The position numbers were made by a program, and so were the translations under genes. 64,000 nt of DNA, from positions 29,167,287-29,231,286 of the forward strand of contig NC_052156.1 in the NCBI RefSeq assembly GCF_902713615.1, written 5' to 3'. The notes under the pieces are model-generated. The model searched no databases and was not told where the DNA came from. It was given only the letters and a program-made list of their open reading frames with translations. This stretch comes from Scyliorhinus canicula (Eukaryota). Positions 4,819 through 56,605 of the stretch are shown here, in pieces (the stretch's first letter is position 1; every line of letters begins with the position of its first letter).

Positions 4819-5132
4819 TGATGCGACCATCAATTCACTCAAAGACACCAGTAGAAGCAAACCAAGGTTTTAATCAGCTGAGAACAGAGAACTGCCTGCA
4901 ACTATTACAATACCGTGGACTGCCTACAGGTCAACTGCTCTTTCTACTTCCTTTCAAGGGGGAGGAACCATGGGCGGAGCCTGTACATGCCCCAACATAC
5001 CCCCTGTGGGTGAAGCCACACAATGGCCCATAGGTGGAGCCCACAAGGTCAACAACACAACATAGCTGTAACACAATGGCAGAACATGATACTAATACAC
5101 TGGTGAATAGCTAGTACTATTCATTCACCACA
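4819..5132 (-). repeat. 3' LTR of Gypsy family A
   Basis: Direct repeat of 9220-9532, roughly 20+ differences by eye; adjacent to the PPT. Confidence 0.95.
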
Positions 5133-5176
5133 TTCACCCCCTGTTAAAAAAATGAGGTCCGGCGGGGGTGACGGGC

Positions 5177-8100
5177 TCATAAGTTCAGCAGGTCTGGCGC
5201 AAGGATTGTGCGCTGCGATCCCCGAAGCTCTGGTGTTGTTGTTGGTCTGGGTGTCGGGCTCATCCGTGCTGGCATCGGAAGTGGGGCCGGTGCGGGCACA
5301 GGCCTGGACTCTGGGAGCATCTCTTCTGGAGCTTCATTCCTATGGACCGGTGTGGCGGGCGGGAGGGAGCGCGGGAGCCATGTCGGGGCGGGGGCGCTGG
5401 ACATGGTAGGTTGGGTGGGATATAGTGGGGAGGCTGAGGTGGTGGTGGTGGAGCCTGCGGGCGCTAGGTTCGAGGGAGACGGTATCTTGTCGGCCATCGG
5501 GGTGTTCAACATAAGCATCCTGGGGGTTGGAGTGCACGAGCTGGACCCTCTCTACCAGAGGGTCGGTCATATGGCTCCTGATGTGTTTTCTGAGGAGGAC
5601 TGGTCCCGTTGTCTTCAGTCAGGATGGAAGCGAGGCCCCTGAAGGTAGCTCCCCTAGAAAAGCAAACAAGCGCTCATGAGGAGTCTCGTTCGTGACCATG
5701 CAAATGAGGGACCTGATAAGAGTGGAGCGCATCAGGGAGGATCTCCTGCCAGTGAGAAACTGGCAGATTCCTGGACCGCAGGGTCAGTAGGACGGTCTTC
5801 CAGACCGTCGCGTTCTCCCTCTCCACCTGCCCGTTTCCCCTGGGGTTGTAACTGGTAGTCCTGCTCGAGGCGATGCCCTTACTGAGCAGGTACTGACGCA
5901 GTTCATTGCTCATGAACGACGAGCCCTGGTCGCTGTGGACATAACTGGGGAAACCAAACAGGGTGAAGACACTATGCAGGGCTCTAATGACAGTGGATGA
6001 GGTCATATCGGGGCAGGGGATTGCAAATGGAAAGCGGGAGAACTCATCTATGATGTTGAGGAAATACGTATTGCGGTTATTGGAGGGGAGGGGCCCTTTG
6101 AAATCGATACTGAGGTGTTCAAAGGGCCGGGATGCCTTTACCAGGTGGGCCTTAGCCAGTCGATAGAAGTGCGGTTTACACTCCGCACAGATTTGGCAGT
6201 CCCTGGTCATAGCCCTGACCTCCTCGGTGGAGTAGGGCAGGTTGCGGGCCTTGATATAATGGACGAGCCGGGTGGCAGAGGTAATCGTGGATAGCCCGTA
6301 GTCGGTCACCTTGCGCGCTGGCGCATGTGCCGTGGGACAGGGCATCTGAGGGCTTGTTGAGCTTCCCAGGACGATATACTATATCGTAGTTATAGGTGGA
6401 GAGTTCGATCCTCCACCTCAAGATCTTATCGTTCTTGATTTTGCCACCCTGCGTATTGTCGAACATGAAGGCTACCAATCGTTGGTTGGTGACGAGGGTA
6501 AACCTCCTACCCACGAGGTAGTGCCTCCAGGGCCGCACGGCTTCCACGATGGCTTGGGCTTCTTTTTCGACCGAGGAGTGTTGAATTTCAGAGGTGGTGA
6601 GGGTGCGCGAAAAGAACGCTACCGGTCTGCCTGCTTGGTTGAGGGTGGCAGTGAGAGTGACCTCTGATGCGTCGCTCTCCACCTGGAAGGGGCAGACTCG
6701 TCCACCGCGCGCATCTCAGCTTTGGCGATGTCCTGCTTGATGCAGCTGAAGGCCTGGCGAGCCTCAGTTGCCAGTGGAAAGCTGGTGGCCTTGATTAGTG
6801 GCCACCACTAATCTTGGGCGGGCGGGCTTTGTCTGCATAATTGGGGACGCACTGGGCGTAATATGAAAAGAACCCAAGGCACCTCTTCAGGGCCTTGGGA
6901 CAGTGAGGGAGAGAGAGTTGCAGGAGGGGGCATATACGGTCAGGGTCGGGCCCTAGGACCCCGTTCTCCACGACGTAGCTGAGGGTGGCTAGTCTGGTTG
7001 TGTGGAAAATGCATTTCTCCTTGTTGTAGGTGAGATTGAGGGTTTGGGCGGTTTGGAGAAATTGGTGGAGGTTGGCGTCGTGGTCCTGCTGATCATGGCC
7101 GCATATGGTGACATTGTCCAAGTACGGAAATGTGGCCCGCAGTCCGTACTGGTCCACCATTTGGTCCATTGCTCTTTAGAACACCGAAACCCCATTCTTG
7201 ACGCCAAAGGGAACCCGGAGGAAATGGAAAAGGCGGCCGTCTGCCTCAAAAGCCGTGTAGTGGCGGTCCGCCGGGCGGATTGTGAGCCGGTGGTATGCAG
7301 ACTTCAGATCCACCGTGGAGAACACCCGGTAGTGTGCGATCTGATTCACCATGTTTGCAATCCGGGGAAGGGGGTACGCATCGAGTTGCGTATACCGGTT
7401 AATGGTTTGGCTGTAATCAACCACCATCCGGAACTTTTCCCCGGTCTTGACGACGACCACCTGAGCTCTCCAGGGGATATTGATGGCCTCGATGACACCC
7501 CCCTGCAAGAGACTCTGGACCTCGGACCTAATGAACGTCCTGTCCTGCATGCTATACCGCCTGCTTCTGGTGGCGACTGGCTTGTAGTCGGCGGTGAGGT
7601 TTGAGAAGAGAGGGGGAAGGTCGACTTTTAGGGTCTCGAGGCTGCATATGGTGAGTGGGGCAGGGGCCCCCCTGAACCTCAGGTTACATTGGAAGTCGAG
7701 TCCCAATAGGAGAGGAGCGCAGAGGTCTGAGAGCACATATAATTTAAAGTTAGCGTACTCAGGGTTGCTAGGGTTGTAGTAGTGCAGCCTTGGATTTGCA
7801 CCGAGTGCGACCCAGAGGCGAGGGAGATGGTTTGTTGCGCCGGGAAAATTGTAAGCAGCGTCTTACCATGTCCGGGTGAATGAAGCTCTCTGTGCTCTCG
7901 GAGTCGAAGAGGCAAGGCGTCTCGTGCCCGTTAACCCGGACGGCCATCGTGGAGCTCCGGAGGTGCTTGGGCCACGACTGGTCCAGGGTGACCGCGCTGA
8001 GCTGCGGGTAGCCGGCGGCGTGGTCGGAAGTGCTGGGACGGCCCCGCGATGACTGTCCATATTGATCATGCGCGTCAAGCGGCGTAGCAGATGGCGGCCA

Positions 8101-9196
8101 AGATGGTGGCCCCCATTGGTCGAGCGTGGCGGGCGGTGAGGAAAATGGCATCCAAGATGGTGGCCCCCATGGATCACACGTGGCCGGCCGCGTGGCGGAG
8201 GATGGCCAAGATGGCGGCCCCCATTTGTCGAGCGTGGCGGGCAGTGAGGAAGATGGCGGCCCCCATGGATCGCACGTGGCCGGCCGGGTGGGGGAGGATG
8301 GCCAAGATGGCAGCCCCCATGCGTCGCACGTGCTGCGAGGGCAGGAAGATGGCCACCCCCACTGATAGCACGAGGCTGATGACGTGTCTGCAGGGGGCGG
8401 AGTCGGCAGACACGCTGCCACACTGCGGGGTCTGCTGGCCTGTGAGTCTGAGGATCGGGCCTGTGAGTTCAAGTTCTTAGACCTGGCCAGGCAACTTTTG
8501 GCGAAATGTCCTTTTTTCCGCAGCTGCTGCAGTTCATGTTGGGGGCCGGGCAGTGCTGTCGGGGGTGTTGAGACTGGCCGCAAAAATAGCAGGGTAGCCC
8601 CCCCATGATGGGCGGGTGGCCGCGCGGCGCAGGCCTGGGGTAGTCTTTGGTCGGGGGCCCACGAAGGGGTCGGTGGTCAGCCTGGAATGCAGTAAGGCTC
8701 TGAAACGCAGCCACCAGAGAGGTGGCTAACGTTACCGTGTTGTCCAGGTCCTGGGCCCCCTTTTCGAGCAGGTGCTGTCTCACATAATTCGACTGGACTC
8801 CCGCCACGTAGGCGTCTCGGACGGTGAGTTCCATGTGCTGAATGGCCGTAATGGCCTGGTAATTACAGTTGCGTGCGAGGGCTTTGAGGTCACGTAGGTA
8901 GTCATCTAGCGACTCCCCGGGGCGCTGGCGGCATAGACCTCATTCACGGGCCGTACGTAGAGGCGTTCGAGCGTCGCGAGGGCGTCTGCGTATGAGGAGG
9001 CCTCGTCGAGCTGAACAGAAATGCGATGGCTCACCCGTGTGTGGAGGAGGCTCAGCTTCTGTTCATCAGTGACGGAAGGCGTGGAAGCGGCAGCGAGATA
9101 GGCCTTGAAGCATCAAAGCCAGTCCGAAAATTTTTATTTCACCTCCGCAGCCTGAGGATCGAGTTGCAGTCGATCAGGTTTGAGGGCTGATTCCAT
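5177..9196 (-). pseudogene. Disrupted gag-pol of Gypsy family A
   Basis: ORF fragments 8469-8834 (gag), 7768-8583 (linker/PR), 7176-7736 and 6795-7169 (RT, FPYLDNVTIC), 6176-6682 (RNase H), 5674-6345 (IN core), 5177-5570 (IN C-terminus); early stop after MESALKPDRLQLDPQAAEVK. Confidence 0.93.
8088..8360 (-). repeat. In-frame minisatellite (~54-bp units) encoding xDxWGPPSW repeats in the gag-PR linker of family A
   Basis: AAGATGG cores recur at ~8100, 8154, 8208, 8250, 8304, 8346. Confidence 0.9.
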
Positions 9197-9219
9197 AGTT
9201 GTCTTTAAGCTGATTAAAT

Positions 9220-9532
9220 TGATGCGACCATCAATTCACTCAAAGACACGAGTAGAAGCAAACCGAGGTTTTAATCAGCTTAGAACAGAGCCTACCTGCG
9301 ACTAGTACAATACTGTGGACCGCCTACAGGTCAACTGCTCTTTATACTTCCTTTCAAGGGGGAGGAGCCATGGGTGGAGCCTGTACATGCACCAACATAT
9401 CCCCTTGTGGGTGAAGCCACACAATAGCCCATAGGTGGAGCCCACAAGGTCAACAACACAACATAGCTGTAACACAATGGCAGAACATGATGCTAATACA
9501 CTGGTGAATTACTAGTACTTACTTTAACCACA
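9220..9532 (-). repeat. 5' LTR of Gypsy family A
   Basis: TATAAA on minus at 9341-9346, ATTAAA at 9270-9275; gag ATG follows a 23-nt leader. Confidence 0.95.
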
Positions 9533-9931: not shown

Positions 9932-10212
9932 TGATGTGACCATCAATTCACTAGACACGTGATTGGAAGTAAACTGTGGTTTTAATAGTCTTACAACTAA
10001 GCCAGCCTGCGACCAGAGGAACCGAGAGCAGGCTTACAGCTGCAGTGCTTTATACTTCCGGTTAGTGGGAGGAGCCATGGGCGGAGCCCAGTACAAACTC
10101 ATCATCTCCCCCTATGGGCGGAGCCGTGCAACGGCTCACATACAGGGCCCACAAGGACACAATACATGCAAGGCAATACAGTGTGAATTACGATGGCATA
10201 TAATTCATCACA
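9932..10212 (-). mobile_element. Solo LTR of a related Gypsy family
   Basis: TGATGTGACCATCAATTCAC...TCACA termini homologous to the family A LTR; TSD CCCCT at 9927-9931 and 10213-10217. Confidence 0.9.
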
Positions 10213-17391: not shown

Positions 17392-19136
17392 ATTTGTGTT
17401 TATGGATGCTGTATAAGAAAACCGCGCCTTTAAATTTTACTTGCATCTGATTCAGAACTCCAGGTGTTTCATCTGTTACATAATTTGAAGTATTGGCTTT
17501 GATTTCTTAAGTGTGATTTGACAATAGCCACTCACTTGCTACGGTGTGAGATGGAATGAAAAGTTTGGTGCAATCTGAATCTTTGATCAGCATGAACACA
17601 TAGATCTGAATTATTCCAGTTTGGATCGCTTTGAATTTAGACGCAATCTAGAATCTACTCCCGACTAAAGGATGATCGAGAAACAACTTGTTCCATAATT
17701 GAATTCAAGGTGATTGAAACTTTCAGGAATGTAAAAGCCATCTATTTGAAAAGGGAAATTAAGATTCATTTTCCATTTTTATTCCCGGATAATGATTCCA
17801 CATATATTTAGTTTCATCCAGTGCTATTATGAATGTAACAGACCTCCTTAGTGGGGGAAGGGCATCAGAAAAAGTTGTTACATTTGTGCACTCATAAAAG
17901 CCTTTATTATATGTGTGCTCTTAAGTGAATAACAAGCTTATAGAGAACTTATTCTTTCGAGTTGAATGGAGTCATCCTTATTTTAATAATCCTCAAACTT
18001 ATTTTTACTTGACATTGCTGGGAACATCCTCACCCATATAATTACTGGATATGTCTGAGGATTTGCTTAAACCACTTGGTGTTCAATTTCAGGGCTGTAC
18101 ACAAGACAGGGTGGAAGAGCCAAAACTCGTCAAACAAGGCTAGTTTGGCAGAACTCATACAGGCTCTGTCAGGACCAGCCCCATATACAAAGTATTGTTC
18201 TTGCAAATTTCAAGAAAAAAAACTGCACAAAATTCACCTTCGCTTGCTTCTACAGCCATTAAATTGCTATTTACAGTTTGAGCTTTTTTAAATGAAATAG
18301 CTAATTCAGGTTAATACAGAACAACATAAAATCAATTTACCAGAGAAAAGTTAATCTCAGAATGTTTTGCATTTGCATACTGATGCTACCTAATGTTCCC
18401 ACTACAGTATTTGGGAACACATTATTGAAAGTTAGTGCATTGGAGGCATTTAGTGGCAGTAAAAAGGTACTGCAAGAACTTTTGAATTTTAACTTGTATT
18501 GTGGGAATCTTAACTTTTGATTCAATGATCCTCAGTTTTCTTCATCACACACATATTTTCCCTCAAGGTCAATTTTCCAACCTCCATAACACTGTCTGTC
18601 TCTACCGTTACTTCCACCAGTACCCTGGTCCCATCCCTATAGGTTTGGCTTCTCCATTGCTCTCCCCAACAGGCCTCCTTGTCTCAAACCATCCAAAATT
18701 ACAGCTCATTCAAATTACCAAATTCACACCATTACCTGGAAAACGTTCCATACTGTCACCAATGTTTTAATAGCTCTGGTGTCATAGGAAATCAACTTCA
18801 AGATTCTCATCTTTGATTCAACTTTCTCCATGGCCTTCCCCTATCCTACCTCATCAATCTCCTTCAATCTCATTTCCTGCTCTTCTCAATGCCAAGTTAC
18901 TTCTGGTCAGTCTCTTCGATACTGCTCTTTACTACTTATGCTTCTCTCCTCTAGAAGTTGATCTCTATCTTCTTACTTTGCTTTCAAAAACCTAAACATT
19001 TATGATCTGAGCATCTACCTGCACCAGCACAGTGGTTAGCACTATTGCTTCACAGCGCCAGGGTTCCAGGTTTGATTCCTGGCTTGGGTCACTGTCTGTG
19101 CGGAGTCTGCACGTTCTCCCCGTGTGTGCGTGGATT

Positions 19137-19331
19137 TGAAAATGAAATGAAATGAATGAAAATGAAATGAAAATCGCTTGTCACGAGTAGGCTTCAAATG
19201 AAGTTACTGTGAAAAGCCCCTAGTCGCCACATTCCGGCGTCTGTTCGGGGAGGCTGTTACGGGAATCGAACCGTGCTGCTGGCTTGCCTTGGTCTGCTTT
19301 CAAAGCCAGCGATTAGCCCAGTGAGCTAAAC
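19137..19331 (-). mobile_element. tRNA-derived SINE lacking the V-domain, (CATTT)n tail
   Basis: A box TAGCTCACTGGG, B box GGTTCGATTCC; shares gtggcgactaggggcttttcacagtaacttcat with the host SINE tail. Confidence 0.8.
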
Positions 19332-19639: not shown

Positions 19640-21354
19640 TTAATGTAAGCCTACTTGTGACAATAAAAGATTATTATCGAACCTGAGTATCTACTGAGGC
19701 CAGCAATTAACCACAGGGAAAAGATGACATTTCTTCCCAGACTGTTAAGCCAAATAAAACCTCAGACTATGAATCCAACTGCACCAACTTCTACTGTTTA
19801 ACTCTGACCAGTTGCCTTCCATGGGTGACACATCCACAGTCCCATGAGGACAAGTCATCAGTGTGTTCCATACAGTATATGAGAATCCGTCTACCCTCAG
19901 AGTCTTTTATTGTGTTTTTAAACACAGATTTATGCAATTGTCTTTATTAACTGCTTTTGATGGAATATACTCTATATATTCATTACACTGTAGGAATAAA
20001 GAAGTTCATGAGCTCTATTCTCTTGTTGAGATGAGGATGGGGCACAGGTGAGACGGGTTTGATAAGGTGGTTGGTAGAGGAGAAAAGACAAAAGGAGTTA
20101 TATTTTCTCTCCTGGATGATCCATTCTGGGTGTCTTTGGTACAGATTGAAGCCCACTAGCACCTAATGTTGTCCTCGTTACAGCGAATGAAGAATGGGAA
20201 AACCAATTGTGCATCAGATGTGCTTAAACTTGCAGCTCGCCAGCATTCATTCCCTTTTCATCACTTATGCTGTAGCACTTCCTCTAAAACACACTAATGA
20301 CATTCTTATGAACTTAAAACTTTTTTTTTGTCAAGATAATCACAATTCTTTTAAAGCGACTTACAAGAAACTGCTCCCTATGAATCACTATTCTGACACA
20401 CTGACTGAGGTATACTATCATCTGAAACTTCTCCCATTTGTCTATAAATTATTGCTAGACTTATCCAGAAAGCTAAACAAACAAAATTACACTGTTTGCC
20501 AACCTGTTTTCAGACTTACCTTCCACCCAGTAATAGGTGTAATTACTACTAAAATATGCATTATGTTTACCTGTATTCACATACCATTCAACCTCACATC
20601 TGTAATTCTCCCTGTGGCACATTCCAAACTTCAGCCCTGTTATTTGGTCGAGGGCTTCTGCTGGACAAAAGGCACATCTTTCATTTGAAGTTCCCATATG
20701 GGTGTCTTTATGGGCTCAAGACCTTGGCACAAGTTGCCTGTGCCCTTCTCGGAAAGGGGCAGTTATTATGACATCTTAATTTCCTAGAAATTTTGATACA
20801 CAGTTTGTAATTTTGCCAATTGATTGAACCCCTTTTTCATTGTTTCTTAATATTGGAGTGCATCAAAAATAACCGTATGGAATTCATTTCTATCTGAGTA
20901 GATTTCTTAGTGGCCTATGATTCCACCCATCATAGTGGCTAGTAAATTTCCACAGCTCTTTGTACATTTATTGACATGTTGGTGAATGCACTATTTAACA
21001 GGATTCTCCATTTTTTAATCTTCAGGTTAGTAGCGGCTGTAAAAAATTGTGCGTTCAACATAGGTAGCTCCGTCAGGATCTTAATTTCTCGTATTTTTCT
21101 AAACATTAAATGGTTCACAAAGTTAGGTGATAATGTTTTAATGGAAGAACATTACACCGCCTTGTGTAGAATTACTCTTCACTAAACTGGAGCTGTGTTG
21201 AAGAATATGAAATCTAACTGCTCCAAATAAACATACTGAGGTCAAGCAGAGTTTAATTGCTGCTGGTAAAGGATGATTACAAGTGCATTCCAAACCGTAA
21301 ATTTTCAGATTCAAGTCAGAAACAACCTACATTAAATAACAGCTTTGTTTTAAA

Positions 21355-23427: not shown

Positions 23428-23713
23428 TGATGAACCATCAATCGAACGCGAGACAAGTTGCTGTACAAAAGTTAGGCTTTAATAAGCTAGAAGTTAGCCC
23501 TGCGGTCGACTACAGTAAATAGACGACCGCCGGGCGTTCTGGTTATTTATACCTCGCTCTGGAGGCGGGGTTAACTCAGCCTCACGACCAATCGGAGAGC
23601 CATCACATGACTGGTCTCAACCAATCGGTTGAGAGGCACATGACCGACCAGGGCCAATGGTAAGCCAGTGTTCTGCACCAATGGCAGACAGCTACGCAAA
23701 TCATACCACCACA
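23428..23713 (-). repeat. 3' LTR of Gypsy family B
   Basis: Direct repeat of 27986-28271, adjacent to the PPT. Confidence 0.96.
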
Positions 23714-23899
23714 TTCACCCCTTGCGGAGAAGCCGGGGGGGTAATCAACGAGAGCCGGGGGGGAGGGGGGGAGGTTGGGAGAACTGGTGGTATGAGTAGC
23801 AGCCAGAGAAGGGAGAAAAAAATGTTTTGGCTTCCCACTGGCCCAGACAATTAACAATAGTACAAAATGTCCCAACAAGGTCCATGGAGTTGTTGTAAA

Positions 23900-26800
23900 T
23901 TAAATAGACTCGATCAGTCTTTTCGTGGCCCGTGACGTCCTGGCAGACCGCCGCAGTGGAGTTGGTGACGTTGGTTCAGCCGATGGTGGTGGTTCCGCTG
24001 ACGTCCTGGAGTCCGGGAGCGATGGTCCTTGAACAGTCTCCGTCACCCAGGCTGGCGGTGGAGACGCCATGGATGGGGAAGGGGTGGCCAGGGTGGGGCG
24101 CTGGGGGAAAAAAAAAACAGGGGGGGGGGGCTCTGTGGCGAAGGGGGGGGGGGGGGGAGGAGGCCGCACAACAGCGGGTGCCAGGTCCCGGAGGGAGACC
24201 GTGTCCTACCGACCGTCGGGGTACTCCACATACGCATACTGCGGGTTAGCGTGGAGTAACTGGACTTGTTCAACCAACGGGTCGGACCTGTGCGCCTGCA
24301 CATGCTTCCGGAGCAAGATGGGTCCAGGGGCGGCCAGCCACGTCGGGAGAGGGGATCCGGAGGATGACTTCCTGGGGAAAACAAGACGACGTACATGAGG
24401 TGTCTGATTTGTTGCGGTACAGAGGAGTGAGCGGATAGAATGTAGGGCATCGGGGATCACCTCTTGCCATCGGGAAATAGGGAGATCTCTGGACCGGAGG
24501 GCCAGTAGTATGGTCTTCCAGATGGTACCATTCTCCCGCTCGACCTGTCCGTTACCCCGAGGGTTATAGCTGGTCGTCCTGCTAGAGGCAATGCCCCTGT
24601 TGAGCAGGAATTGACTCAGTTCATCGCTCATAAATGAGGACCCCCGATCGCTATGTATGTATGCAGGGTAGCCGAACAGGGAGAAGATGGAGAGGAGGGC
24701 CTTAACGACGGTCGATGTGGTCATGTCGGGGCAGGGAATGGCGAAGGGGAAGCGGGACTATTCGTCGATTACCGGCAGGAAGTAAATGTTGCGGTTGCTA
24801 GAGGGAAGGGGCCCTTTGAAGTCAATGCTGAGACGTTCGAAGGGGCGGGATGCTTTGATCAGATGTGCGCGCTCAGGGCGGTAGAAGTGTGGTTTGCACT
24901 CTGCGCAGATGTGGCAGTCACGGGTTACTGTCCTGACTTCCTCGATGGAGAAAGGCAGGTTGCGGGCCTTAATGAAATGGTAGAAACGGGTCACCCCTGG
25001 ATGGCAGAGGTCAGCGTGGAGGCGGTCTATCTGCGTGCTGGCGCAGGTACCGCGGGACAGGGCATCAGGAGGCTAATTGAGCTTCCCAGGACGATACAAG
25101 ATCTCATAGTTGTACGTGGACAACTCGATCCGCCACCGTAAGCTCTGTCATTCTTAATCTTGCCCCTTTGTGCATTATCAAACATGAAGGCTACTGACCG
25201 TTGGTCTGTGAGGAGGGTAAACCTCCTGCCAGCCAAATAGTGCCTCCAATGTCGCACAGCTTCGACAATGGCCTGGGCTTCCTTTTCCACAGAGGGGTGG
25301 TGGAGTTCGGAAGCCTGGAGGGTTCTGGAGAAGAAGGCCACAGGTCTGCCCGCTTGGTTCAGGGTGGCCGCCAGAGCTACTTCTGATGCGTCGCTCTCGA
25401 CCTGAAAGGGGAGGGACTCGTTGATGGCACGCATCGTGGCCTTTGCGATGTCCGCTTTGATGCGGCTAAAGGCCTGGCAGACCTCTGTCGACGGCGGGAA
25501 GGTCGTGGTTTGAATGAGGGGACGGGCCTTGTCAGCGTAATTGGGAACCCATTGGGCATAGTAAGCGTAGAAACCCAGGCAGCGTTTGAGGGATTTGAGG
25601 GTATTGGGAAGAGGGAGTTCCATCAGGGGGCGCATGCGTTCGGGGTCGGGGCCTATCACTCCGTTACGCACTACGTAGCCGAGGATGGCTAGACGGTCGG
25701 TGCTAAACACGCACTTATCCTTACTGTATGTGAGGTTAAGGAGTTTTGCGGTTTAGAGGCATTTCCGGAGGTTGGCGTCATGGTCCTGCTGGTCGTGGCC
25801 GCAGATGGTGACATTATCGAGATACGGTAAGGTAGCCCGTAATCCGTACTTGTCGACCATTCGGTCCATCTCCCGTTGGAAGACCGAGACCCCATTTGTG
25901 ACACCAAATGGAACCCTAAGGAAGTGGTAGAGGCGCCCATCAGCCTCGAACGCGGTGTACTTGCGGTCACTCGCGCGGAGGGGGAGCTGGTGATAAGCGG
26001 ACTTAAGGTCCACAGTGGAGAAGACCTTGTATTTCGCTATATCATTTACCATGGCGGAAATACGGGGCGAGGATACACGTCCAGTTGCATAAACCGGTTG
26101 ATGTTCTGGCTATAGTCGATGACCATCAGGTTTTTCTCCCCAGTCCGGACCACCAGCACTTGGGCTCGCCAGGGACTGTTGCTGCCCTCGATGACCCCTT
26201 CCTTCAGCAACCTCTGGACCTCGGACCTGATGAAGGTCCGGTCCTGGGCGCTGTACCGCCTGCTCCGTGTCGTGACGGGTTTGCAATCGGGGGTGAGATT
26301 AGCAAACAAGGAGGGGGGGTCCACTTTGAGGGACGCGAGGCTGCAGACAGTGAGGGGGGGTATAGGGCCGCCGAATTGAAAGGTCAGGCTCTGCAGGTTG
26401 CACTGGAAGTCCAGTCCTAGGAGTGCCGGTGCGTAAAGGTCAGGGAGGACAAGGACTTTGTAATTTTTTAAAACCTTCCCTTGGACCGTGAGGTCCGCGA
26501 TGCAGCTAACCCGATTTTGTGTTTTACAGGATGGACAGGGAGCGCGCAGCGTCTTACCATGGCAGGGTGAACAAAGCTTTCCGTGCTCCCAGAGTCCAGC
26601 AGGCAGCCCGTCTCGTGGCCGTTGAGGTGGATCAGCGTTGTTGTTTTGGCGAGCGTGCGTGGCCGTGACTGGTCGAGTTGAATGGTCGCGAGCCGTGGAG
26701 AAGAACCATCGTCGCAGTTGTCGTCGGCCGAGTAGTAGCTGGCAGAATCTTGCGTGCCAGTCCAGGAAGGTGGTGCCCAGTACCCGCACGTGGAGTCGGG

Positions 26801-27961
26801 GCCCCAAGATGGAGGCGCCCAGGACCCGCACGTGGAGTCGGCGCCCCAAGATGGCGGCGCCCAGGACCCGCACGTAGAGTCGGCGCCCCAAGATGGCGGC
26901 GCACGCGGGGCCCTCGTGGTTGTGGGGGACGGGGTTAGCGGTGCCGGCGGGCCGACCGGAGCGGCTGAGAGCGGGGGCAGAGAGGCGCGCAGGCCAGGCG
27001 TAGGGGCCGGGGGCAGCGAGGAGAGAGTTGCGCGGTGCGCTGGGAGGGCCCGGAGGAGGGGGAGGCGTGCAGGCCGGGCGCAGGGGTCCGGGGGGGGGGG
27101 GGGGGGGGGGGGAAAGAGATTGGCGCTGCGTACTGGAAGGGCCAGCAAGGGCCCGGAGTGGGGGATCCCCGGTCGCTGTGCGGTGCAGCAGCGACCAATT
27201 TGGCCTGGCAGACGGATGAAAAGTGGCCCTTCTTCCCGCAGCTCTTACAGAGGGCGGAGCGGGCCGGGCAGCGCGGGCGAGGGTGTTTCGCGAACCCACA
27301 GAAATAGCAGCAGGGCCCCGTGGACTTGTCGGGGCGTCCCGCGGCGCAGGCCTGAGGGAGGTCGGGAGCGGCGGATGGCGGTGGGGAAGCGTGCCAGGAG
27401 GTCCAGGGTGCTGCAGCGCGGCTGGGGGCATAGGCTCGGGCGTTTAAATCAGCGACCTCCAGGGAGGTGGAGAGAGTCCGTGCCTCAGTTAGGCTGAGGT
27501 CGTCTTTCTCCAGCATCCGCTGGCGGATAGCGGCAGACTGCATCCCAGCCATGTAAGCATTTCTAATCTCTTCTGATCTCTAATCAGAAGTTCCATGTGC
27601 TCCGTGGCTGAAACTTCCTCCCCAGGACAGCGAGGGCCTGGTAAAATTGGTCTAATGACTCACCGGGGAGCTGTCGTCTGGTAGCCAGCAGATGTCGGGC
27701 GAATACTCTGTTGACCAGTTTAAGAAACTGTCCATTCAGCTTAAGCATGGCCGCATCGTAATCTTTTTCCTCCCTGATCAGCGCGTAGGCTGCTGTGCCC
27801 ACGCTGGAGTGGAGGATGTGAAGCTTCTGTGCCATGGTGGGGGGGCTATTTGCGGACGCCAGGTATCCCTCGACACATGCCAGCCAATGTTGAAAGATTT
27901 CTGAAGCGTTCTGAGTTTGCGGGCTGATGCGGAGGCATTCGGGCTTGAACCGGAGCTCCAT
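23900..27961 (-). pseudogene. Disrupted gag-pol of Gypsy family B
   Basis: ORF fragments 27584-27967, 26935-27552, 26468-27148, part of 26046-27431, 25753-26052, 25027-25710, 24758-24994, 24206-24724, 23900-24169. Confidence 0.94.
26770..26905 (-). repeat. In-frame 42-bp tandem repeat x3 encoding CGSWAPPSWGADST in family B
   Basis: CAAGATGG(A/C)GGC at 26805, 26847, 26889. Confidence 0.92.
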
Positions 27962-27985
27962 CTTCAAAATTCTAGCTTATTAAAT

Positions 27986-28271
27986 TGATGAACCATCAAT
28001 CGAACGCGAGACGAGTTGCTGTACAAAAGTTAGGCTTTAATAAGCTAGAAGTTAGCCCTGCGGTCGACTACAGTAAATGGACGACCGCCGGGTGTTCTGG
28101 TTATTTATACCTCGCTCTGGAGGCGGGGTTAACTCAGCCTCTCGACCAATCGGAGAGCCGTCACATGATTGGTCTCAACCAATCGGTCAAGAGGCACATG
28201 ACCGACCAGGGCCAATGGTAAGCCAGTGTTCTGCACCAATGGCAGACAGCTATGCAAATCATACCACCACA
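27986..28271 (-). repeat. 5' LTR of Gypsy family B
   Basis: TATAAA on minus 28104-28109, GC box, multiple CCAAT boxes, ATTAAA at 28036-28041. Confidence 0.96.
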
Positions 28272-28320
28272 ATATGGAACTCACTGAAACAGAAATAATT
28301 AAATCTTATTTTCCAGTGAT

Positions 28321-28362
28321 TCAGACACAAAACGTACGACTCACGTAACCTGAAGCTTTATT
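28321..28362 (-). terminator. Probable TAMM41 poly(A) signal AATAAA with GU-rich downstream element
   Basis: tttatt at 28357-28362 (AATAAA on minus), ~445 nt after the stop; followed on minus by GTCGTACGTTTTGTGTCTG. Confidence 0.55.
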
Positions 28363-32573: not shown

Positions 32574-32795
32574 GGGCAGCATGGTGGAACAGTGGCTAGC
32601 ATTGCTGCCTGCGGCACCGAGGACCCGGGTTCAAATCCTGGCCCTGGGTCACTGTCCATGTGGAGTTTGCACGTTCTCCCCGTATCTGCGTAGCTTTCAC
32701 CCCCCATATCCCAAAGTTGTGGAGGTGGATTGGCCACGCTAAATTGCCCCTCAATTCGAAAAAATAATTGGGTACTCTAAATTTATTTTTAAAAA
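32574..32795 (+). mobile_element. Short V-SINE variant
   Basis: As 2487-2712. Confidence 0.85.
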
Positions 32796-32879
32796 TCATG
32801 GCAGCACATGCTGTGGGGACATGGAAGGTAACAATATCCACCAGACACACATGGGGCCGGATCCTCCAATTCAGAGTGT

Positions 32880-35800
32880 TTTTTTATAAATGTTTTTTAT
32901 TGAGTTTTTGAACAAAGTATATTTGCCGTTATGTACAGAGGGGCAGCACGGTAGCATTGTGGATAGCACAACTGCTTCACAGTTCCTGGGTCCCAGGTTC
33001 GATTCCGGCTTGGGTCGCTGTCTGTGCAGAGTCTGCACGTTCTCCCCGTGTGTGCGTGGGTTTCCTCTGGGTGCTCCGGTTTCCTCCCACAGTCCAAAGA
33101 TGTGCAGGTTAGGTGGATTGGCCATGATAAATTGCCCTTAGTGTTGGGTGGGGTTACTGGGTTATGGGGATAGGGTGGTGGTGTTGACCTTGGGTAGGGT
33201 GCTCTTTCCAAGAGCCGGTGCAGACTCGATGGGCTGAATGGCCTCGTTCTGCACTGCAAATTCAATATGATATATGTATATATAGAAGAGAGAGAGAGAG
33301 AAGGGCACACACAAACATATCACAAAAAAAAAGTAATAATAAGAAATATAAAATCAAATCAAGTAACTGATAAGGTATTATACACCAATTCAAAAGCAGC
33401 AACTCTGTACACTTGGCAAAATTATTTACAACACACCAGCAGGCATCTGTTTGGGGGGCGGGTGTATACATTTGGGTGCCGGAGAAACAATTACAGAGGG
33501 CAACACTCGAATGGGTCTGGTGTTGGTGTTGTCACTTGCTTCTCACGGACGGATTTCGCTGCCGTTGTCGTCTCGCGCTCACCTCCGCTTCAGCCGTTCC
33601 TCCCGTATTCTCCTTTTTCTCTGTTCCTGTGTTTGCCAAGTTTGTTATCGTTTCCCTGCCTCCCCACCTACCTGGTTCTCCTCTATTGTTCCCCCCCCTT
33701 CTATCTCTCATGCTTTGGCTACTTTCCCCTGATTCTTGGCTACCTGGCTATTCTTCTGCTTGTTCGTTGGCCACAAACAGGCCCCGAAACAATTGGGTGA
33801 ATGGCTCCCACGTTCTGTGAAAGCCGTCATCTGACCCTCGGATGGCAAATTTGATTTTCTCCATTTGGAGAGATTCCGAGAGGTCGGATAGCCAGTCTGC
33901 AGCTTTGGGTGGTGCTGCTGACCACCAGTCGAACAGGATTCTGCGGCGGGCAATCAGGGAGGCAAAGGCAAGGGTGCCCGCCCTCCTCCCCTGGAATAGA
34001 TTTGGCTGGTCTGAAACCCCGAAGACCGCCACTTTTTGGGCATGGCTCCACCCTCACCCCCACCACTTTGGACATTGTCTCGAAGAAGGCTATCCAGTAC
34101 CCCGCAAGTCTAGGGCAAGACCAGAACATGTGGGTGTAGTTGGCCGGGCCTCCTTGACACTGTTCACATCTATCCTCCACCTCCGGGGAGAACCTACTCG
34201 TACGGGTTCTTGTTAAGTCGGCTTTATGTACCACTTTTAGTTGCATCAGGCTGGGCCTTGCGCAAGTGGAGGTGGAGTTGACCCTATGCAGTGCTTCGCT
34301 CCAGAGTCCCCACCCTATTTCAATCCCCAGGCCCTCCTCCCATTTCTTTCTTGTTCCCTCCAGTACGGTGTCGGCCCTTTCTACCAGTCAGTCATACACG
34401 GCGCTACAGTTTCCTTTATCTAGGATGCTTGCGCCCGGTAACTCTTCCAGTAATGTCTGTCGTGGCGGTTGTGGATATGTCTCTGTCTCCTTTTGTAGGA
34501 AGTTTTTGAGTTGCAGGTACCTTAGCTCATTCCCCCTGACTAGCTGGAATTTTTCCGTCAGTTCGTCCAGTGTTGCGATCCTGCCGTCCGTGTATAGGTC
34601 CCTGACTCAGTGTCCCTCCATCCTGTCCCCACCTTTTGAAAGTGGTGTCAAGTCAGTGCTGGTGTGAACCTATGGTTGCTGCAGATGGGATCTTTGTCCG
34701 ACATTTTAGTCAGGCCAAATTGCTGCCGTAGTTGGTTCCAGGACTGGAGGGTAGCTATCACCACCAGGCTGCTGGGGTGTTTTTTGAGTGGGGATAGGAG
34801 TGCTGACCTCCGGAGGGAGGTCCCCATGCAGGAGGCCTCTTCCGTGCGCACCCATTCGGCTTCTGGCTCCTTGATCCATCCCCTTATTCGCTCGGCCGTC
34901 GCCGCCCAGTGGTAGAATTGTAGGTTTGGGAGGGCTAGACCCCCCCCGGATTTTGTTTTTGTAGGATCTTCTTCGGGATCCTAGCATTCTTCCCCCCCAC
35001 CCCCATACGAACACCATGATTAGTTTGCCCAGCGCTTTGAAAAAGGCCTTGGGGATGTAGATCGGGATGGATCTAAGTAGGAAGAGGGCAGCACGTTCAT
35101 TTTGATCGTCTGGACTCTCCCCACGAGGGAGAGTGGGAGTGTGTTCCATCTTTGCAGGTCCTTTTTTATTTCCTCTGTCAGACTGGTGAGGTTCCATTTG
35201 TGGATCCCTTTCCAGTCATGGGCCATTTGGATCCCCATGAATTTGTATCGGGCTTGTTTAAACGGCAGTCCCGTTAGTGCTGCCCCCCTACTTGCGGGTG
35301 TACTGGGAAGATCTCGCTTTTGCTCATGTTGAGTTTGTAGCCCGAGAAGGCGCCAAGCTCTTTCAGGAGCACGATGATTCCGTCCATGCTGTTTTGTGGG
35401 TCCGGAATGTAGAGGAGCAGGTCATCTGCATAGAGTGAGACTCTGTGCTCTCTGCCACCCCTTTGGATCCCCCTCCAGCTTTTTGCTGCTCTGAGCGCAA
35501 TTGCTAGTGGCTCGATCGCTAGAGCAAACAGCAGCGGGGACAGTGGGCATCCTTGTCTGGTGCACCTATGCAACTGGAAGTATCGGGAGTTGGTGTTGGT
35601 TGCCCGTACGCTCACCATGGGTGCGCTATATAGGAGTTTTACCCAGGAGGTGAATCCTGTTCCAAGCCCGAACCACTCCAGTACCTCTATGAGGTATTTC
35701 CATTTGACTCTGTCGAAGGCCTTTTCTGCGTCTAGGTAGACGATCATCTCTGGTGTTCTCTCCCCGGACGGGATCATTATCACGTTCAGCAGGCACCTGA

Positions 35801-36605
35801 TGTTTGAAGTAAGCTGTCTACCTTTGACAAAGCCCGTCTGGTCCTCTGCGACCACCTCAGGTACACAGTCTTCTAGCCTTTTGACTAGAATTTTGGCATC
35901 TGCATTCAGCAGTGAGATGGGTATGTTTGACCCACATTCCGTTGGATCTTTATTTTTCTTAGATATCAGCGAGATTGAGGCCTGTGCTAGCGTGGGTGGC
36001 AGAGTGCCACGAGCCAGCAAGTCTCTCGCAGGTGACCATCTCTTGCAGGTACGGGGCCAGTGCTGTCGCAAATTTTTTGTAGAAGTCCGCCGGGAGCCCG
36101 TCTAGTCCCGGCGCCTTCCCTGCTTGCATGGAGCTAATGCTGTCCATGATCTCTCTCAGTACTAGTGGTGCTTCCAGGCCCCGTTTTCTGCCCTCCCCCA
36201 CGACTGGTATGTCCAGTTCATCAAGCAACCATTTCATCCCGGACTCCCACCTTGGGGGCTCTGAGGTGTACAGCCCTTGGTAAAAGGCCCTGAAGGCTTT
36301 GTTGATCTTTTCTGGTTCTGTTTCTAATGTGCCTCTGGTATCCCTGATTTGTGCAATTTCTCTGGTGGCTGCCTGCTTTCTCAGCTGGTGTGCCAACAGG
36401 CAGCTGGCTTTGTCTCCGTGTTCGTACAGGGTCCCAAGTGCCAGGAGCTCTACGGTCGGGGCCTCAGAGTATTTACGGTCTATCTCCAGTATGGAGTCGA
36501 CCAGTTGCTGCTCAGCCGCCCTTTCCTCCCTATCCCTTCGCGCTTTGAAAGCGATGATTTCCCCTCTTAGTACGGCCTTAGAACATGGAGGGTGAGACCT
36601 CCTCT
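32880..36605 (-). mobile_element. 5'-truncated L1/Tx1-clade LINE
   Basis: RT QGCPLSPLLF and YADDLLLY; C-terminal CEQC..HMFWSC; 3' UTR with AATAAA and A-rich end; SINE nested at 32940-33268. Confidence 0.92.
32940..33268 (+). mobile_element. Full-length HE1-like V-SINE
   Basis: A/B boxes, V-domain, CR1-type tail. Confidence 0.9.
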
Positions 36606-36699: not shown

Positions 36700-37000
36700 A
36701 ATAATATTTATTGTCACAAGTAGGCTTACATTAACACTGCAATGAAGTTACTGTGAAAAGCCCGTAGTTGTCACATTCCGTCGCCTGTTCGGGTACACAG
36801 AGGGAGAATTCAGAATGTCCAATTCACCCAACAGCACATCTTTCAGGACTTGTGGGAGGAAACCGGAGCATCCGGAAGAAACCCACGCAGATACGGGGAG
36901 AACGTGCAGACTCCGCACAGACAGTGACCCAAGCCGGGAATCGAACCTGGGACCCTGGCACTGTGAGCAACAGTGCTGCTACCCACTGTGCTACGATGCT
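36700..37000 (-). mobile_element. V-SINE variant
   Basis: As 17135-17391. Confidence 0.85.
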
Positions 37001-43699: not shown

Positions 43700-46600
43700 G
43701 TGCCTCCCTTGGCATGTGCAGCTGGAAGTGATGGGGCCACAAGCAGGGGGGATTGGGGTCTGCTGGACACTCCCCGAGTTACCTGCTTGGGTGGCACTCG
43801 AAATGTCCTGCTGCTGGTCTCCCTCTCTATGGGTGCCTGGTTCCTGGCTGACTCCTTAAGAGACAGCTGGGGTGACATACAGTTGACTCGACCTCCTCTT
43901 GCCACCAATGGATCCCACCAATGCCTTCATTGATAAAGTGCAGCTCCTGACGCAGTGAAAGTACTATGTCCAGGACCAAGGTCTCCATGGTGGCCACTAT
44001 CCTACCAGTGTTGAGGTCTGTGTGTTGGCATGCTGGCACTATTACTTCAGACTGAACACGGATTGACTCCCCTATCGTATATTGCAATCTGTGGAAAGCA
44101 GCTGACAACCCTTCCTGACACTGGTTGAAGCTCCCCCAACTGATTTAGAACCGAGCCTGGAGGCTTGTCATCAGACTTGGACTCAGTAGAATCGTGGCCT
44201 CCAGCAATCCTCCGAGTGCCAGAGACCACAGATATCCTTGCCTCTGCATGCTGTGGACCAAATTGTGTGCTGTACACACCCGATTGTGAATGTGAGGTTA
44301 TTCTAGAACTAAGTCCAGCAGTATGTCTCTGTGCTGGTAGTGTGGGTGAGCACTGTGACAGATCTTCAACAGTGCTCTTCTCTGCTTCCTCATCTGAAGT
44401 GGTGTAAGGCTGGATGTGATGCCTGGCTGATTGATGCCACTGGGCACTTTCCAGAGATGTCTCGGAAAGAAAGTAGAGATAACTTAAGCATGGCAAGCAA
44501 CTGGAAGATAGAATAATAGGCTCACAGTATTGTTATCTGAGGGATGAGCTGGTGCAGGGTTCACACTTGGGTGTGCGCCGCCGATCTCACCATCACCATA
44601 TGCACGACCATCCTTACTGGCTGGTGCAATGGCATGTTCCTCATATGGAGTGAGGGCCTTAATTTCGGTCACTTCACTCCCATTCTGGGACCTCTCCTAT
44701 TGTGCGCGCGCTTGTCCTTAGAACATAGGGGGCTGAGGGGTGACTTGATTGAGGTGTACAAAATTATGAGGGACCTAGATACACAGGGGAGACTTGTCTC
44801 CCCTAGCGGGGAGGTCAATTTCCAGGGAGCACAAATTTAAGGATTGGTTTGGATTTGTTTATTGTCACGTGTACCGAGGTACAGTGAAAAGTATTTTTCT
44901 GCGAGTAGCTCAACAGATCATTAAGTACATGGGAAGAAAAGGGAATAAAAGAAAATACATACTAGGGCAACACAAGATATACAATGTAACTACATAAGCA
45001 CTGGCATCAGATGAAGCATACAGGGTGTAGTGTTAATGAGGTCAGTCCATAAGAGGGTCATTTAGGAGTCTGGTGACAGTGGGGAAGAAGTTGTTTTTGA
45101 GTCTATTTATGCTTGTTCTCAGACTTCTGTATCTCCTGCCCGGTGGAAGAAGTTGGAAGAGTGAGTGAGCCGGGTGGGAGGGATCTTTGATTATGCTGCC
45201 CGCTTTCCCCAGGCAGTGGGAGGTGTAGATGGAGTCAATGGATGGGAGGCAGGTTCGTGTGATGGACTGGCGGTATTCACGACTCTCTGAAGTTTCTTGC
45301 GGTCCTGGGCCGAGCAGTTGCCATACCAGGCTGTGATGCAGCCCGATAGGATGCTTTCTATGGTGCATCTGTAAAAGTTGGTAAGAGTTAATCTGGACAA
45401 GCCAAATTTCCTTAGTTTCCTGAGGAAGTATAGGTGCTGTTATGCTTTCTTGTTGGTAGCGTCAACTTGGATGGACCAGGACAGATTTTTGGAGATGTGC
45501 ACCCCGAGGAATTTGAAACTGCTAACCATCTCCACCTCGGCCCCGTTGATGCTGACAGGGGTGGACAGTACTTTGCTTCCTGAGGTCAATGACCAGTTCT
45601 TTAGTTTTGCTGGCATTGAATGAGAGATTGTTGTCGCTACACCACTCCACTAGGTTCTCTATCTCCCTCCTGTATTCTGACTCGTCGTTATTCGAGATCC
45701 GGCCCACTATGGTCGTATCGTCAGCAAACTTGTAGATGAAGTTGGAACCACGTTTTGCCACGCAGTCGTGTGTGTACAGGGAGTAGAGTAGGGGGCTAAG
45801 TACGCAGCCTTGCGGGGCCCCGGTATTGAGGACTATTGTGGAGGAGGTGTTGTTGTTCGTACTTACTGATTGTGGTCTGTTGGTCAGAAAATCGAGGAAC
45901 CAGTTGCAGAGTGGGGAGTCAAGTCCTAGGTTTTGGAGCTTTGATATGAGCTTGGTTGGGATTATGGTGTTGAAGATGGAGCTGTAGTCAATAAATAGGA
46001 GTCTGATGTAGGAGTCCTTGTTTTCGAGATGCTCCAGGGATGAGTATAGGGCCAGGGAAATGGCGTCTGATGTGGACCGGTTGCAATGGTGATTGGTAGA
46101 AGGATTAATGGGGAAATTAGGAAAACTATTTTTACCCAGAGGGTAGTAAATGTCTGGAATTTGCTGCCTGAATTGTTGGCAGAAACTCACAACTCATGGT
46201 GCCTGGATCTGCATCCGAAATGCTGTGACCTGCAACGCAACAGACCGCGTGCTGGAAGGTGGGATTAGAATGGGCGACAAGTCCCTTTAGCTGGTGCTGG
46301 CACAATGGGGTGAATGGCCTCTTTGTGCTGTAACTTTTCTTTGGTTCTATAAAGACAAATGGAGAGTGTGTGAGCAGGACACACGCCAAGGGCAGATGCC
46401 TGACTTGTGTGCATGGTGAGTGGAGCAGTGCACGGGATGAGGATGCGATCAACACAGGATATGAGGCCAGATGGAGATGTGAACTGTGTGTGAGAGAGTG
46501 AGTAGTGATGTCCCTTGAGCTGGCAGTGTGTGAGATCCCTGTGGAGTGTCATCCTGCGAATGCCTGATGGTCTTATGGATGTGTGAGTGGAGAGTGATGA

Positions 46601-52980: not shown

Positions 52981-53085
52981 GTTAACAAGAGTAACGAGAT
53001 GTTTATAGTTGGGTTCTATTTTAATCCTTAATCACATGGCATAATCAGTGAATTTCTCATATGCCCATTAGTTGCTAATGTTTTG

Positions 53086-53403
53086 GGCAGCCCAGTAGCA
53101 TAGTGGTTAGCACTGTGGCTTCACAGCACCAGAGTCCCAGGTTCGATTCCCTGCTGGGTCACTGTGCGGAGTCTGCATGTTCTCCCAGTGTCTGTGTGGG
53201 TTTCCTCCGGGAGCTCCGGTTTCCTCCCACAGTCTAAAGACGTGCAGGTGTGGTGGATTGGCCATGCTAAATTGTCCTTAGTGTCCAAAAAAGATTAGGA
53301 GGGGTTATTGGGTTAAGGGGATAGGGTGGAAGTGAGGGCTTAAGTGGGTCAGTGCAGACTCGATGGGCCAAATGGCCTCCTTCTGCATTGTATGTTCTAG
53401 GTT
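53086..53403 (+). mobile_element. Full-length HE1-like V-SINE
   Basis: A/B boxes, V-domain, tail. Confidence 0.9.
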
Positions 53404-56149: not shown

Positions 56150-56605
56150 GTCAGAGGTAGGTTCTTTACCCAGAGAGTAGTGGGGGCATGGAATGCACTG
56201 CCTGCGGTAGTAGTTGAGTCGGAAAAGTTAGGGACCTTCAAGCGGCTATTGGATAGGTACTTGGATTAGGGTAAAATAATGGAGTGTAGGTTAACTTCTT
56301 AAGGGCAGCACGGTAGCATTGTGGATAGCACAATTGCTTCACAGCTCCAGGGTCCCAAGTTCGATTTCGACTTGGGTCACTGTCTGTGTGGAGTCTGCAC
56401 ATCCTCCCCGTGACTGCGTGGGTTTCCTCCGGGTACTCCGGTTTCCTCCCACAGTCCAAAGATGTGCAGGTTGGGTGGATTGGCCATGAAAAATTGTCCA
56501 AAATTCTATGATTAACCTAGGACAAAAGTTCGGCGCAACATCGTGGGCCGAAGGGCCTGTTCTGTGCTGTATTTCTCTATCTATCTATCTATCTATCTAT
56601 CTATA
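56150..56605 (+). mobile_element. CR1 3' end with nested HE1-like SINE (56302-56511) and (CTAT)n tail
   Basis: Matches the reverse complement of 14262-14450 apart from the SINE. Confidence 0.85.

Follow-up and report, generated by a model that had tools for sequence, protein, structure and literature searches.

Results

Two decayed LTR elements and a solo LTR on one strand

The window, a 64,000-nucleotide stretch of Scyliorhinus canicula DNA (contig NC_052156.1, positions 29,167,287 to 29,231,286), carries two decayed LTR elements, here called B and A, together with a solo LTR, C. They lie on the minus strand of the window and represent three families, with the following parts, given in window positions.

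Element B
28271-23428, minus strand: whole element, with LTRs of 286 bp
27986..28271, minus strand: 5' LTR, 286 bp, TGT...CATCA, with 9 mismatches in 286 against the 3' LTR
28104..28109, minus strand: TATA box, by its presumed function
28078, minus strand: predicted transcription start, an initiator-like A 31 nt past the TATA box, read off the sequence
28036..28050, minus strand: 15-nt LTR tract, the predicted self-primer, with a conserved AG at 28046-28045
28036..28041, minus strand: ATTAAA, probable poly(A) signal and final six bases of the predicted primer
28033..28035, minus strand: GCC directly past the predicted cut (RCC in 22/30 families)
27985..27999, minus strand: terminal U5 hairpin TTGATG-loop-CATCAA, stacking on the predicted primer helix, a feature of the window families
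27985, minus strand: unpaired spacer A
27970..27984, minus strand: primer-binding site (PBS), complement of the LTR tract, without a TGG start
23900..27961, minus strand: decayed gag-pol with two CCHC-like arrays, PR, RT, RNase H and IN, interrupted by stops and frameshifts
23714..23723, minus strand: polypurine tract (PPT)
23428..23713, minus strand: 3' LTR, with its hexamer at 23483-23478 and no complement after it; 5-bp target duplication CATAT/CGTAT

Element A
9532-4819, minus strand: whole element, with LTRs of 313 and 314 bp and 21 mismatches in 312
9220..9532, minus strand: 5' LTR, 313 bp, with TATA at 9346; exact 5-bp target duplication GTAGC
9270..9282, minus strand: 13-nt tract, ending in ATTAAA (9275-9270)
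9206..9218, minus strand: primer-binding site, complement of 9282-9270
5133..9195, minus strand: decayed internal region with gag, PR, RT, RNase H, IN and PPT
4819..5132, minus strand: 3' LTR, with its hexamer at 4874-4869

Solo LTR C
9932..10212, minus strand: solo LTR with about 71% likeness to A, from a third family, with TATA at 10054 and target duplication AGGGG
9991-9978, minus strand: AG...ATTAAA|ACC

The three insertions are of the same clade and fall within 24 kb (4819-28271), solo LTR C sitting 400 bp upstream of element A. A TATA-to-hexamer spacing of 68-71 nt is common to B, A and C. By eye, all three LTR families also contain an inverted repeat closing on GCAGG between TATA and tract (28092-28054, 9332-9294 and 10032-10004, minus strand), and GC-rich tandem repeats with units of 42 and 54 bp lie between Gag and protease at 26762-26919 and 8048-8359. 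Other features of the window are a tRNA-like short interspersed repeat with many copies (1068-1283, 2532-2683, 19013-19137, 32622-33157, 36851-36997, 53084-53297 and 56290-56506), RT fragments at 35274-36101 and 45522-46193 with no LTR in the repeat list, and a plus-strand match to the junction motif at 19748 that has no LTR context.

An earlier sequence-only reading of this locus had drawn attention to a tract in each LTR that ends in ATTAAA and whose complement follows the LTR. The minus-strand letters at 28041-28036 and 9275-9270 read exactly so. It had also called ATTAAA the only obvious poly(A) signal past the TATA box, and a scan for 18 hexamer variants found no other there in any of five LTRs (the 5' and 3' LTRs of B and A, and C). 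The complement does stand behind the 5' LTRs only, as it had said; the 3' LTRs of both elements run into target-site DNA instead. In B, the 15-nt tract 28050-28036 is the exact complement of 27984-27970, and in A the 13-nt tract 9282-9270 is the exact complement of 9218-9206, with more pairs after one mismatch. In each case the complement begins one base, an A, beyond the terminal CA of the 5' LTR. None of 20000 shuffled LTRs contained a 13-nt complement of the sequence at the PBS position, either for element B or for element A.

The elements resemble Mag-type Ty3/gypsy retrotransposons

Both elements have the hallmarks of Ty3/gypsy retrotransposons, namely a TG...CA LTR pair, a target duplication, a PPT and the order PR-RT-RH-IN, and Pfam matches in the window show pieces of RT, RNase H and integrase arranged in gypsy order. 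The nearest solved structure is Ty3 Gag-Pol (E 1e-56). Among the protein matches listed, the closest is a Scyliorhinus canicula gene model at 96%; rays, a crab, sea anemones, a coral, Trichinella and Seison supply relatives at 57-80% (best 120 of 697 matches). Protein relatives were not found in viral contigs; the junction pattern has 13 matches there, which lie outside all counts given here.

Two CCHC-like arrays are present in 42/48 long relatives and one in 6/48, and two are visible in element B, which departs from the single array usual in the Tf1/sushi (chromovirus) group. A chromodomain was found in none of 12 proteins scanned at E values up to 0.01, nor among the 120 matches listed. Its absence alone is not decisive against a Tf1/sushi affiliation, because almost all chromoviruses have one at the integrase C-terminus but Tf1 itself is not known to. 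Passages of PMC2577118 give two CCHC arrays as the Mag-type state and one as usual for chromoviruses. The elements thus appear to be Mag-like Ty3/gypsy elements by a match of features, as distinct from placement in a tree against named references.

The RT catalytic motif reads YxDN, not YxDD, in both window elements (25753-26109 and 6795-7175, minus strand) and in 42/48 relatives. A DN-type RT motif is also a feature of BEL/Pao elements. The open full-text literature returned one unrelated paper only for YLDN together with retrotransposon.

LTR and PBS change together across the clade

We collected related loci by protein alignment, taking the best 80 of 525 confirmed metagenome loci and nine loci on genome contigs, which are probably host DNA within bacterial bins. 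Those nine gypsy elements (L094-L102), several of them with both LTRs, sit in contigs of bacterial species representatives and are very likely host DNA that was binned with them. From the 89 loci, a Gag start was matched in 55 and enough upstream DNA was available in 51, giving 53 elements with the two from the window. Six of these were dropped because they lacked either a CA anchor or a helix with a score of 10; by eye, three are decayed copies of kept families (L027, L059, L079), one lies on a truncated contig (L026), and two combine a PBS-like start with a damaged LTR tract (L073, L084). LTR ends defined by LTR pairs coincide with the CA where the alignment stops cleanly (e.g. L018, L019, L021, L047, L057, L080). 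The 47 kept elements form 30 families, 22 of them single-copy and the others represented by their best-paired member; median between-family RT-RNase H identity is 52%, and the family tree was built without an outgroup.

Over positions -1 to -13 of the tract in the 30 families, 379/390 pairs with the PBS are Watson-Crick and 2 are GU, while permuting the PBS among families gave a mean of 253 Watson-Crick pairs and a maximum of 280 in 5000 permutations. This pairing is kept with 29 distinct 13-mers in 30 families, and ten non-overlapping pairs of tree neighbours show 33 compensated against 7 broken differences. The outer edge of the helix is gradual, with pairing fading at -14 to -16 (19-20/30 families) and near background beyond. 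The inner edge, at A|RCC, is sharp: position +1 pairs with the one-base spacer in 0/30 families, so the helix ends at the hexamer. The tract has A at -11 and G at -10 in 25/30 families each, RCC follows it in 22/30, and a stem of at least four pairs begins at +1 in 23/30 families against 9 expected. The partner in cis lies 21-68 nt away from the tract.

A nine-copy family whose members differ by at most three positions in 102 nt offers a closer view. L018 has a tract change in both LTRs with a matching change in the PBS, and L023, of the same family, has a change in both LTRs with its PBS unchanged. Both are single cases, and both are as expected if the PBS is copied from the primer one cycle late.

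The sequence behind the 5' LTR starts TTTA-like, not with TGG, and changes along with the LTR. Since it tracks the LTR letter by letter, it cannot be a tRNA site, and we reject tRNA priming, as no host tRNA could match a PBS that follows the LTR. A single tRNA is called in the window (36926-36997, ARAGORN, tRNA-Ser), and it lies inside a dispersed repeat.

Some features of the shark elements are not general. The U5 terminal hairpin and the TATA spacing belong to this category, a strict TATA at about -75 from the tract end being present in 3/30 families. Pyrimidine-rich stretches that end in YAG, much as a splice acceptor does, are found 26-77 nt upstream of the tract end in 7/28 non-window families (L022, L037, L045, L047, L077, L080 and L095), a count made without a control, and the tract's own AG is acceptor-like in three families. 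Such stretches may reflect an intron or trans-splicing in the LTR leader.

The hexamer at the tract end is probably the LTR poly(A) signal

AATAAA or ATTAAA stands at the tract end in 20/30 families (17 directly, 2 shifted by 1-2 bases and 1 read from the PBS). Among the 29 families whose tract ends in TAAA, AWTAAA occurs in 20 against 4.8 expected from composition, a comparison between families that share ancestry. AATAAA is also the best-conserved motif in animal Metaviridae LTRs according to passages of PMC3601003. Some hexamer is found in the loop in 6/10 families without a tract AWTAAA and in 4/20 with one (p=0.045, a post hoc test on families that are not independent); for a canonical hexamer in the loop the counts are 2/10 and 1/20 (p=0.25), and 4/10 of the variant families have no listed loop hexamer at all. 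One of the latter, L033, has a tract ending in TGAAGA with a matching PBS and is a natural control for telling the poly(A) signal and priming apart. Two families have LTRs that stop 20-23 nt past the hexamer, so that a downstream element would have little space, and U/GU is only weakly enriched past the hexamer. The hexamer is probably the poly(A) signal of the LTR.

RNA reads from four runs (271, 203, 369 and 319 reads) mapped to 27130-28330; many have 90-95% likeness, and they come from many diverged copies and both strands. A loose poly(A) end was seen in none of the 22 rows listed out of 56 for this interval, nor did the reads mapped there show a transcription start or a clear step at the predicted site. 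Presumed sense reads, by a strand convention deduced from the data, cross the hexamer into U5, and in two runs into gag, with no step. Of the RNA reads, 48 leave the LTR end into unrelated flanks. If anything, the reads represent read-through of scattered copies.

The 5' hexamer is predicted to be buried in the helix

We compared how costly it is predicted to be to open the six final bases of the tract in the two LTRs. The cost is higher in the 5' than in the 3' LTR in 22/23 elements and 13/14 families, with medians of 7.3 and 2.3 kcal/mol, respectively, at 20 C. In element B, the predicted cost rises from about 2-3 to 5-6 once 15 nt beyond the LTR have been made, which may be early enough to compete with 3'-end factors. 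In element A, the mask is predicted to be only transient, the difference between 5' and 3' LTRs being gone once 20-30 nt have been made, because an alternative U5-leader hairpin competes. This long hairpin (9250-9195, minus strand) captures the PBS and rivals the primer helix; it is possibly a conformational switch, or a result of decay.

The sequence-only reading had proposed that one duplex both masks the 5' poly(A) signal and supplies the primer. Its primer half is strongly supported by the covariation throughout the clade. Its mask half fared less evenly: the predicted burial of the 5' hexamer in 13/14 families speaks for it, and against masking as a needed function stand 10/30 families that have changed the hexamer and kept the duplex, with at least five separate changes on the tree (seven by parsimony). 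In two of these ten, L015 and L016, a canonical hexamer lies elsewhere than in the duplex. Moreover, burial follows from the primer helix itself and so is no sign of selection for masking.

Additionally, we considered other ways of silencing the 5' signal. Suppression of the U1 type finds no support here, since strong 5' splice donors show no enrichment in the sequence past the LTR (1/30 families against 17/184 background windows); passages of PMC3694450 describe strong splice donors as the route of suppression in HIV-1 and foamy viruses. With only some 40 nt between the predicted start and the hexamer, nearness to the promoter may be enough to keep the signal silent, a mechanism discussed for the HIV-1 5' poly(A) site in passages of PMC2645353. 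Occlusion by the duplex is plausible but probably secondary.

Discussion

A proposed model for self-priming

The pattern of pairing described above makes it very probable, over all the readings that include it, that these elements prime themselves. We propose that a Mag-like clade of animal Ty3/gypsy elements primes minus-strand DNA with its own RNA, as follows. A tract in the R region would pair over 13-16 nt with a site one base past the 5' LTR, and a cut at the helix edge, ...AWUAAA|RCC, would leave a 3'-OH on the final A of the hexamer, the antiparallel geometry placing the 3' end of the primer at that base. The enzyme that cuts would be the element's own RNase H, by analogy with Tf1. A self-cleaving ribozyme at A|RCC was also considered and set aside, as the 2',3'-cyclic ends that such ribozymes leave cannot prime. 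Plus-strand synthesis would then copy the primer back into the PBS, which would keep LTR and PBS in strict Watson-Crick register while both drift. With the cut at the end of the hexamer, strong-stop DNA would cover only sequence 3' of it, so that the spacer of 10-30 nt between hexamer and poly(A) site would be the sole repeat available for the first strand transfer, and the cut could hardly sit further downstream.

Our best joint explanation is that of a self-priming clade in which the hexamer is the poly(A) signal and masking is a by-product of the helix, or a back-up to promoter proximity, and not what maintains the duplex; taken as a whole, we would give it about an even chance. One point against it is that, with a start predicted some 28-34 nt before the tract in the window elements, unlike in Tf1, the model does not account for a halt of plus-strand copying at 13-16 nt. 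Going by the TATA box and the initiator-like base 28078 in B, about 28 nt of leader would precede the pairing tract in the primer. The AG conserved at -11 looks instead like an initiator or a Tf1-type start.

Alternative readings of the duplex

Masking of the 5' hexamer may be a needed second job of the duplex beside priming, which we regard as unlikely. The predicted opening costs (higher at the 5' end in 22/23 elements and 13/14 families, and climbing in B once the first 15 nt past the LTR are made), the lack of splice-donor enrichment that could offer U1-type suppression (1/30 against 17/184), the sense-oriented reads that in two runs continue past the hexamer and on to gag with no step, and the retention of the hexamer overlap in 20/30 distant families would all fit such a role. 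The same opening costs follow from the duplex with no sign of selection, though, element A is masked only transiently, and the duplex is kept in the 10/30 families that have no canonical hexamer inside it, L015 and L016 among them with the hexamer outside; promoter proximity, as discussed in passages of PMC2645353, is an alternative means to the same end. A different division of labour would keep self-priming and deny the hexamer a working role in polyadenylation, making it part of an 11-nt primer or cleavage motif, AG...TAAA|RCC, that is read by RT/RNase H, with 3' ends formed elsewhere or loosely. Conservation of the whole 11-mer (A and G at -11/-10 in 25/30 families each, RCC in 22/30), the family whose tract ends in TGAAGA, loops down to 21-24 nt with weak downstream U/GU, and reads that run through the LTR end are consistent with this. 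The alternation of AATAAA and ATTAAA (A or T at -5 in 29/30 families) is nevertheless the pattern of a poly(A) signal, the five window LTRs have no other canonical hexamer past the TATA box, and replacement hexamers tend to appear where the hexamer is lost, all of which make this motif-only role rather improbable.

Self-priming could also proceed in trans, an option that the sequence-only reading had raised as well. Either the R copy at the 3' end or short transcripts that arise by cleavage at the 5' poly(A) site would anneal to the PBS and be trimmed to the helix edge. In that case, use of the 5' signal would be intended and the signal not hidden, and the primer end would still need cutting back to the hexamer. 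This would explain why primer and poly(A) signal coincide, and it predicts the same covariation and the same lag states. Against it, the cis partner is only 21-68 nt off and is predicted to pair once made, and the hairpin directly past the tract (at least four pairs in 23/30 families against 9 expected) suggests a folded cis substrate like that of Tf1; also, no short polyadenylated RNA was seen in the four runs, whose libraries would miss such RNA. We consider a primer in trans improbable. Lastly, the duplex might be purely structural or serve poly(A) masking alone, with priming left to a host RNA such as a tRNA fragment. Retroviruses do have long-range leader pairings, and no RNA end, primer or cDNA intermediate turned up in this analysis. 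But the complement starts one base past the LTR end, where the PBS must lie, it varies by family, and GU pairs are almost absent (2/390), unlike in a helix kept merely for stability, so that we view priming by host RNA as very improbable.

Comparison with known self-priming and poly(A)-masking systems

The closest parallel to the self-priming proposed here is Tf1, in which, according to passages of PMC7175516, the initial 11 bases of RNA pair with the PBS, and RNase H cleaves between base 11 and base 12. Tf1, Tf2 and Tj1, of the Tf1/sushi group, likewise have a PBS complementary to their own R region and not to a tRNA. The Tf1 primer has 11 bases, and the conserved core found here, counted from the AG, is also 11 nt; the title of a cited paper points to the need for a U5 stem-loop. 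The elements studied here differ from the Tf1/sushi group in having no chromodomain (12/12), two CCHC arrays (42/48) and pairing over 13-16 nt, in a primer that ends on a probable poly(A) hexamer and, in the window elements, in a predicted start about 30 nt upstream of the tract.

With the Mag lineage (A/B/C clades: Mag, CFG1, Gulliver, Hydra2-1, SURL) they share two CCHC arrays, the order PR-RT-RH-IN and the lack of a chromodomain. tRNA priming is the mode known for named Mag elements. Short LTRs with a poly(A)-type hexamer and a wide metazoan spread are further likenesses, going by passages of PMC6238403 and PMC3601003. Self-priming is not described for Mag in the parts of the literature considered, and the RT motif YxDN, present in 42/48 relatives, is a further difference.

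The polyA hairpin of HIV-1 meets a similar demand, in that a hexamer in R has to be ignored in the 5' LTR and structure can mask it from CPSF (passages of PMC2645353 and PMC3694450). The HIV-1 hairpin forms at the 5' and the 3' end alike, and upstream enhancers overcome it at the latter, whereas the partner here lies outside the LTR, is present at the 5' end only and is the PBS itself. In plants, self-priming of Tcn1 gypsy and TAR copia elements has likewise been deduced from LTR-PBS complementarity, with repeated origins; passages of PMC6317226 concern other lineages and hosts and make no link to a poly(A) signal.

Self-priming is thus reported for Tf1/sushi, Tj1, Tcn1 and TAR (passages of PMC4600332 and PMC6317226). 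In the open full-text literature, we found no self-priming in Mag-like animal elements and no primer that ends on a poly(A) signal; the parts considered of PMC10886601, PMC6238403, PMC6934838, PMC8556966 and PMC2774666 contain nothing on either. A search of the same literature for the name 'Selfy' gave no match. 'Selfy' is a name for self-priming gypsy elements, and Repbase annotators have reportedly noted self-priming in some animal gypsy families.

Implications for priming and end-specific polyadenylation

At its most ambitious, our reading would join these strands into one: in a metazoan-wide Mag-like clade unrelated to Tf1/sushi, a helix of 13-16 bp, formed at the 5' end only, would first hide AAUAAA or AUUAAA from host 3'-end factors while transcription is under way and would then be cut in the particle at the last base of the hexamer to prime. 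The spacer between hexamer and poly(A) site would be the whole working R, and with the PBS re-templated in each cycle, mask and signal would co-evolve automatically. We regard this combined view as less likely than not.

Self-priming is known experimentally from fission-yeast Tf1 and has been inferred for Tf1 relatives and two plant lineages. If the elements described here prime themselves, tRNA-free priming would have arisen again and would be common in animals, in a clade whose hosts range from crustaceans and cnidarians through to rays and sharks. They would not carry the tRNA site against which 3' tRNA fragments act, and annotation that relies on the PBS would overlook them. The fixed geometry of the junction, with the primer 3' end on the hexamer, the A|RCC edge and the one-base spacer, predicts with single-base precision the cut, the poly(A) site and a working R that is very short. 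In addition, it supplies a natural and end-specific answer to how identical LTRs may use the 3' poly(A) site only, and natural variants with the signal inside or outside the helix could serve as controls for the choice between 5' and 3' poly(A) sites.
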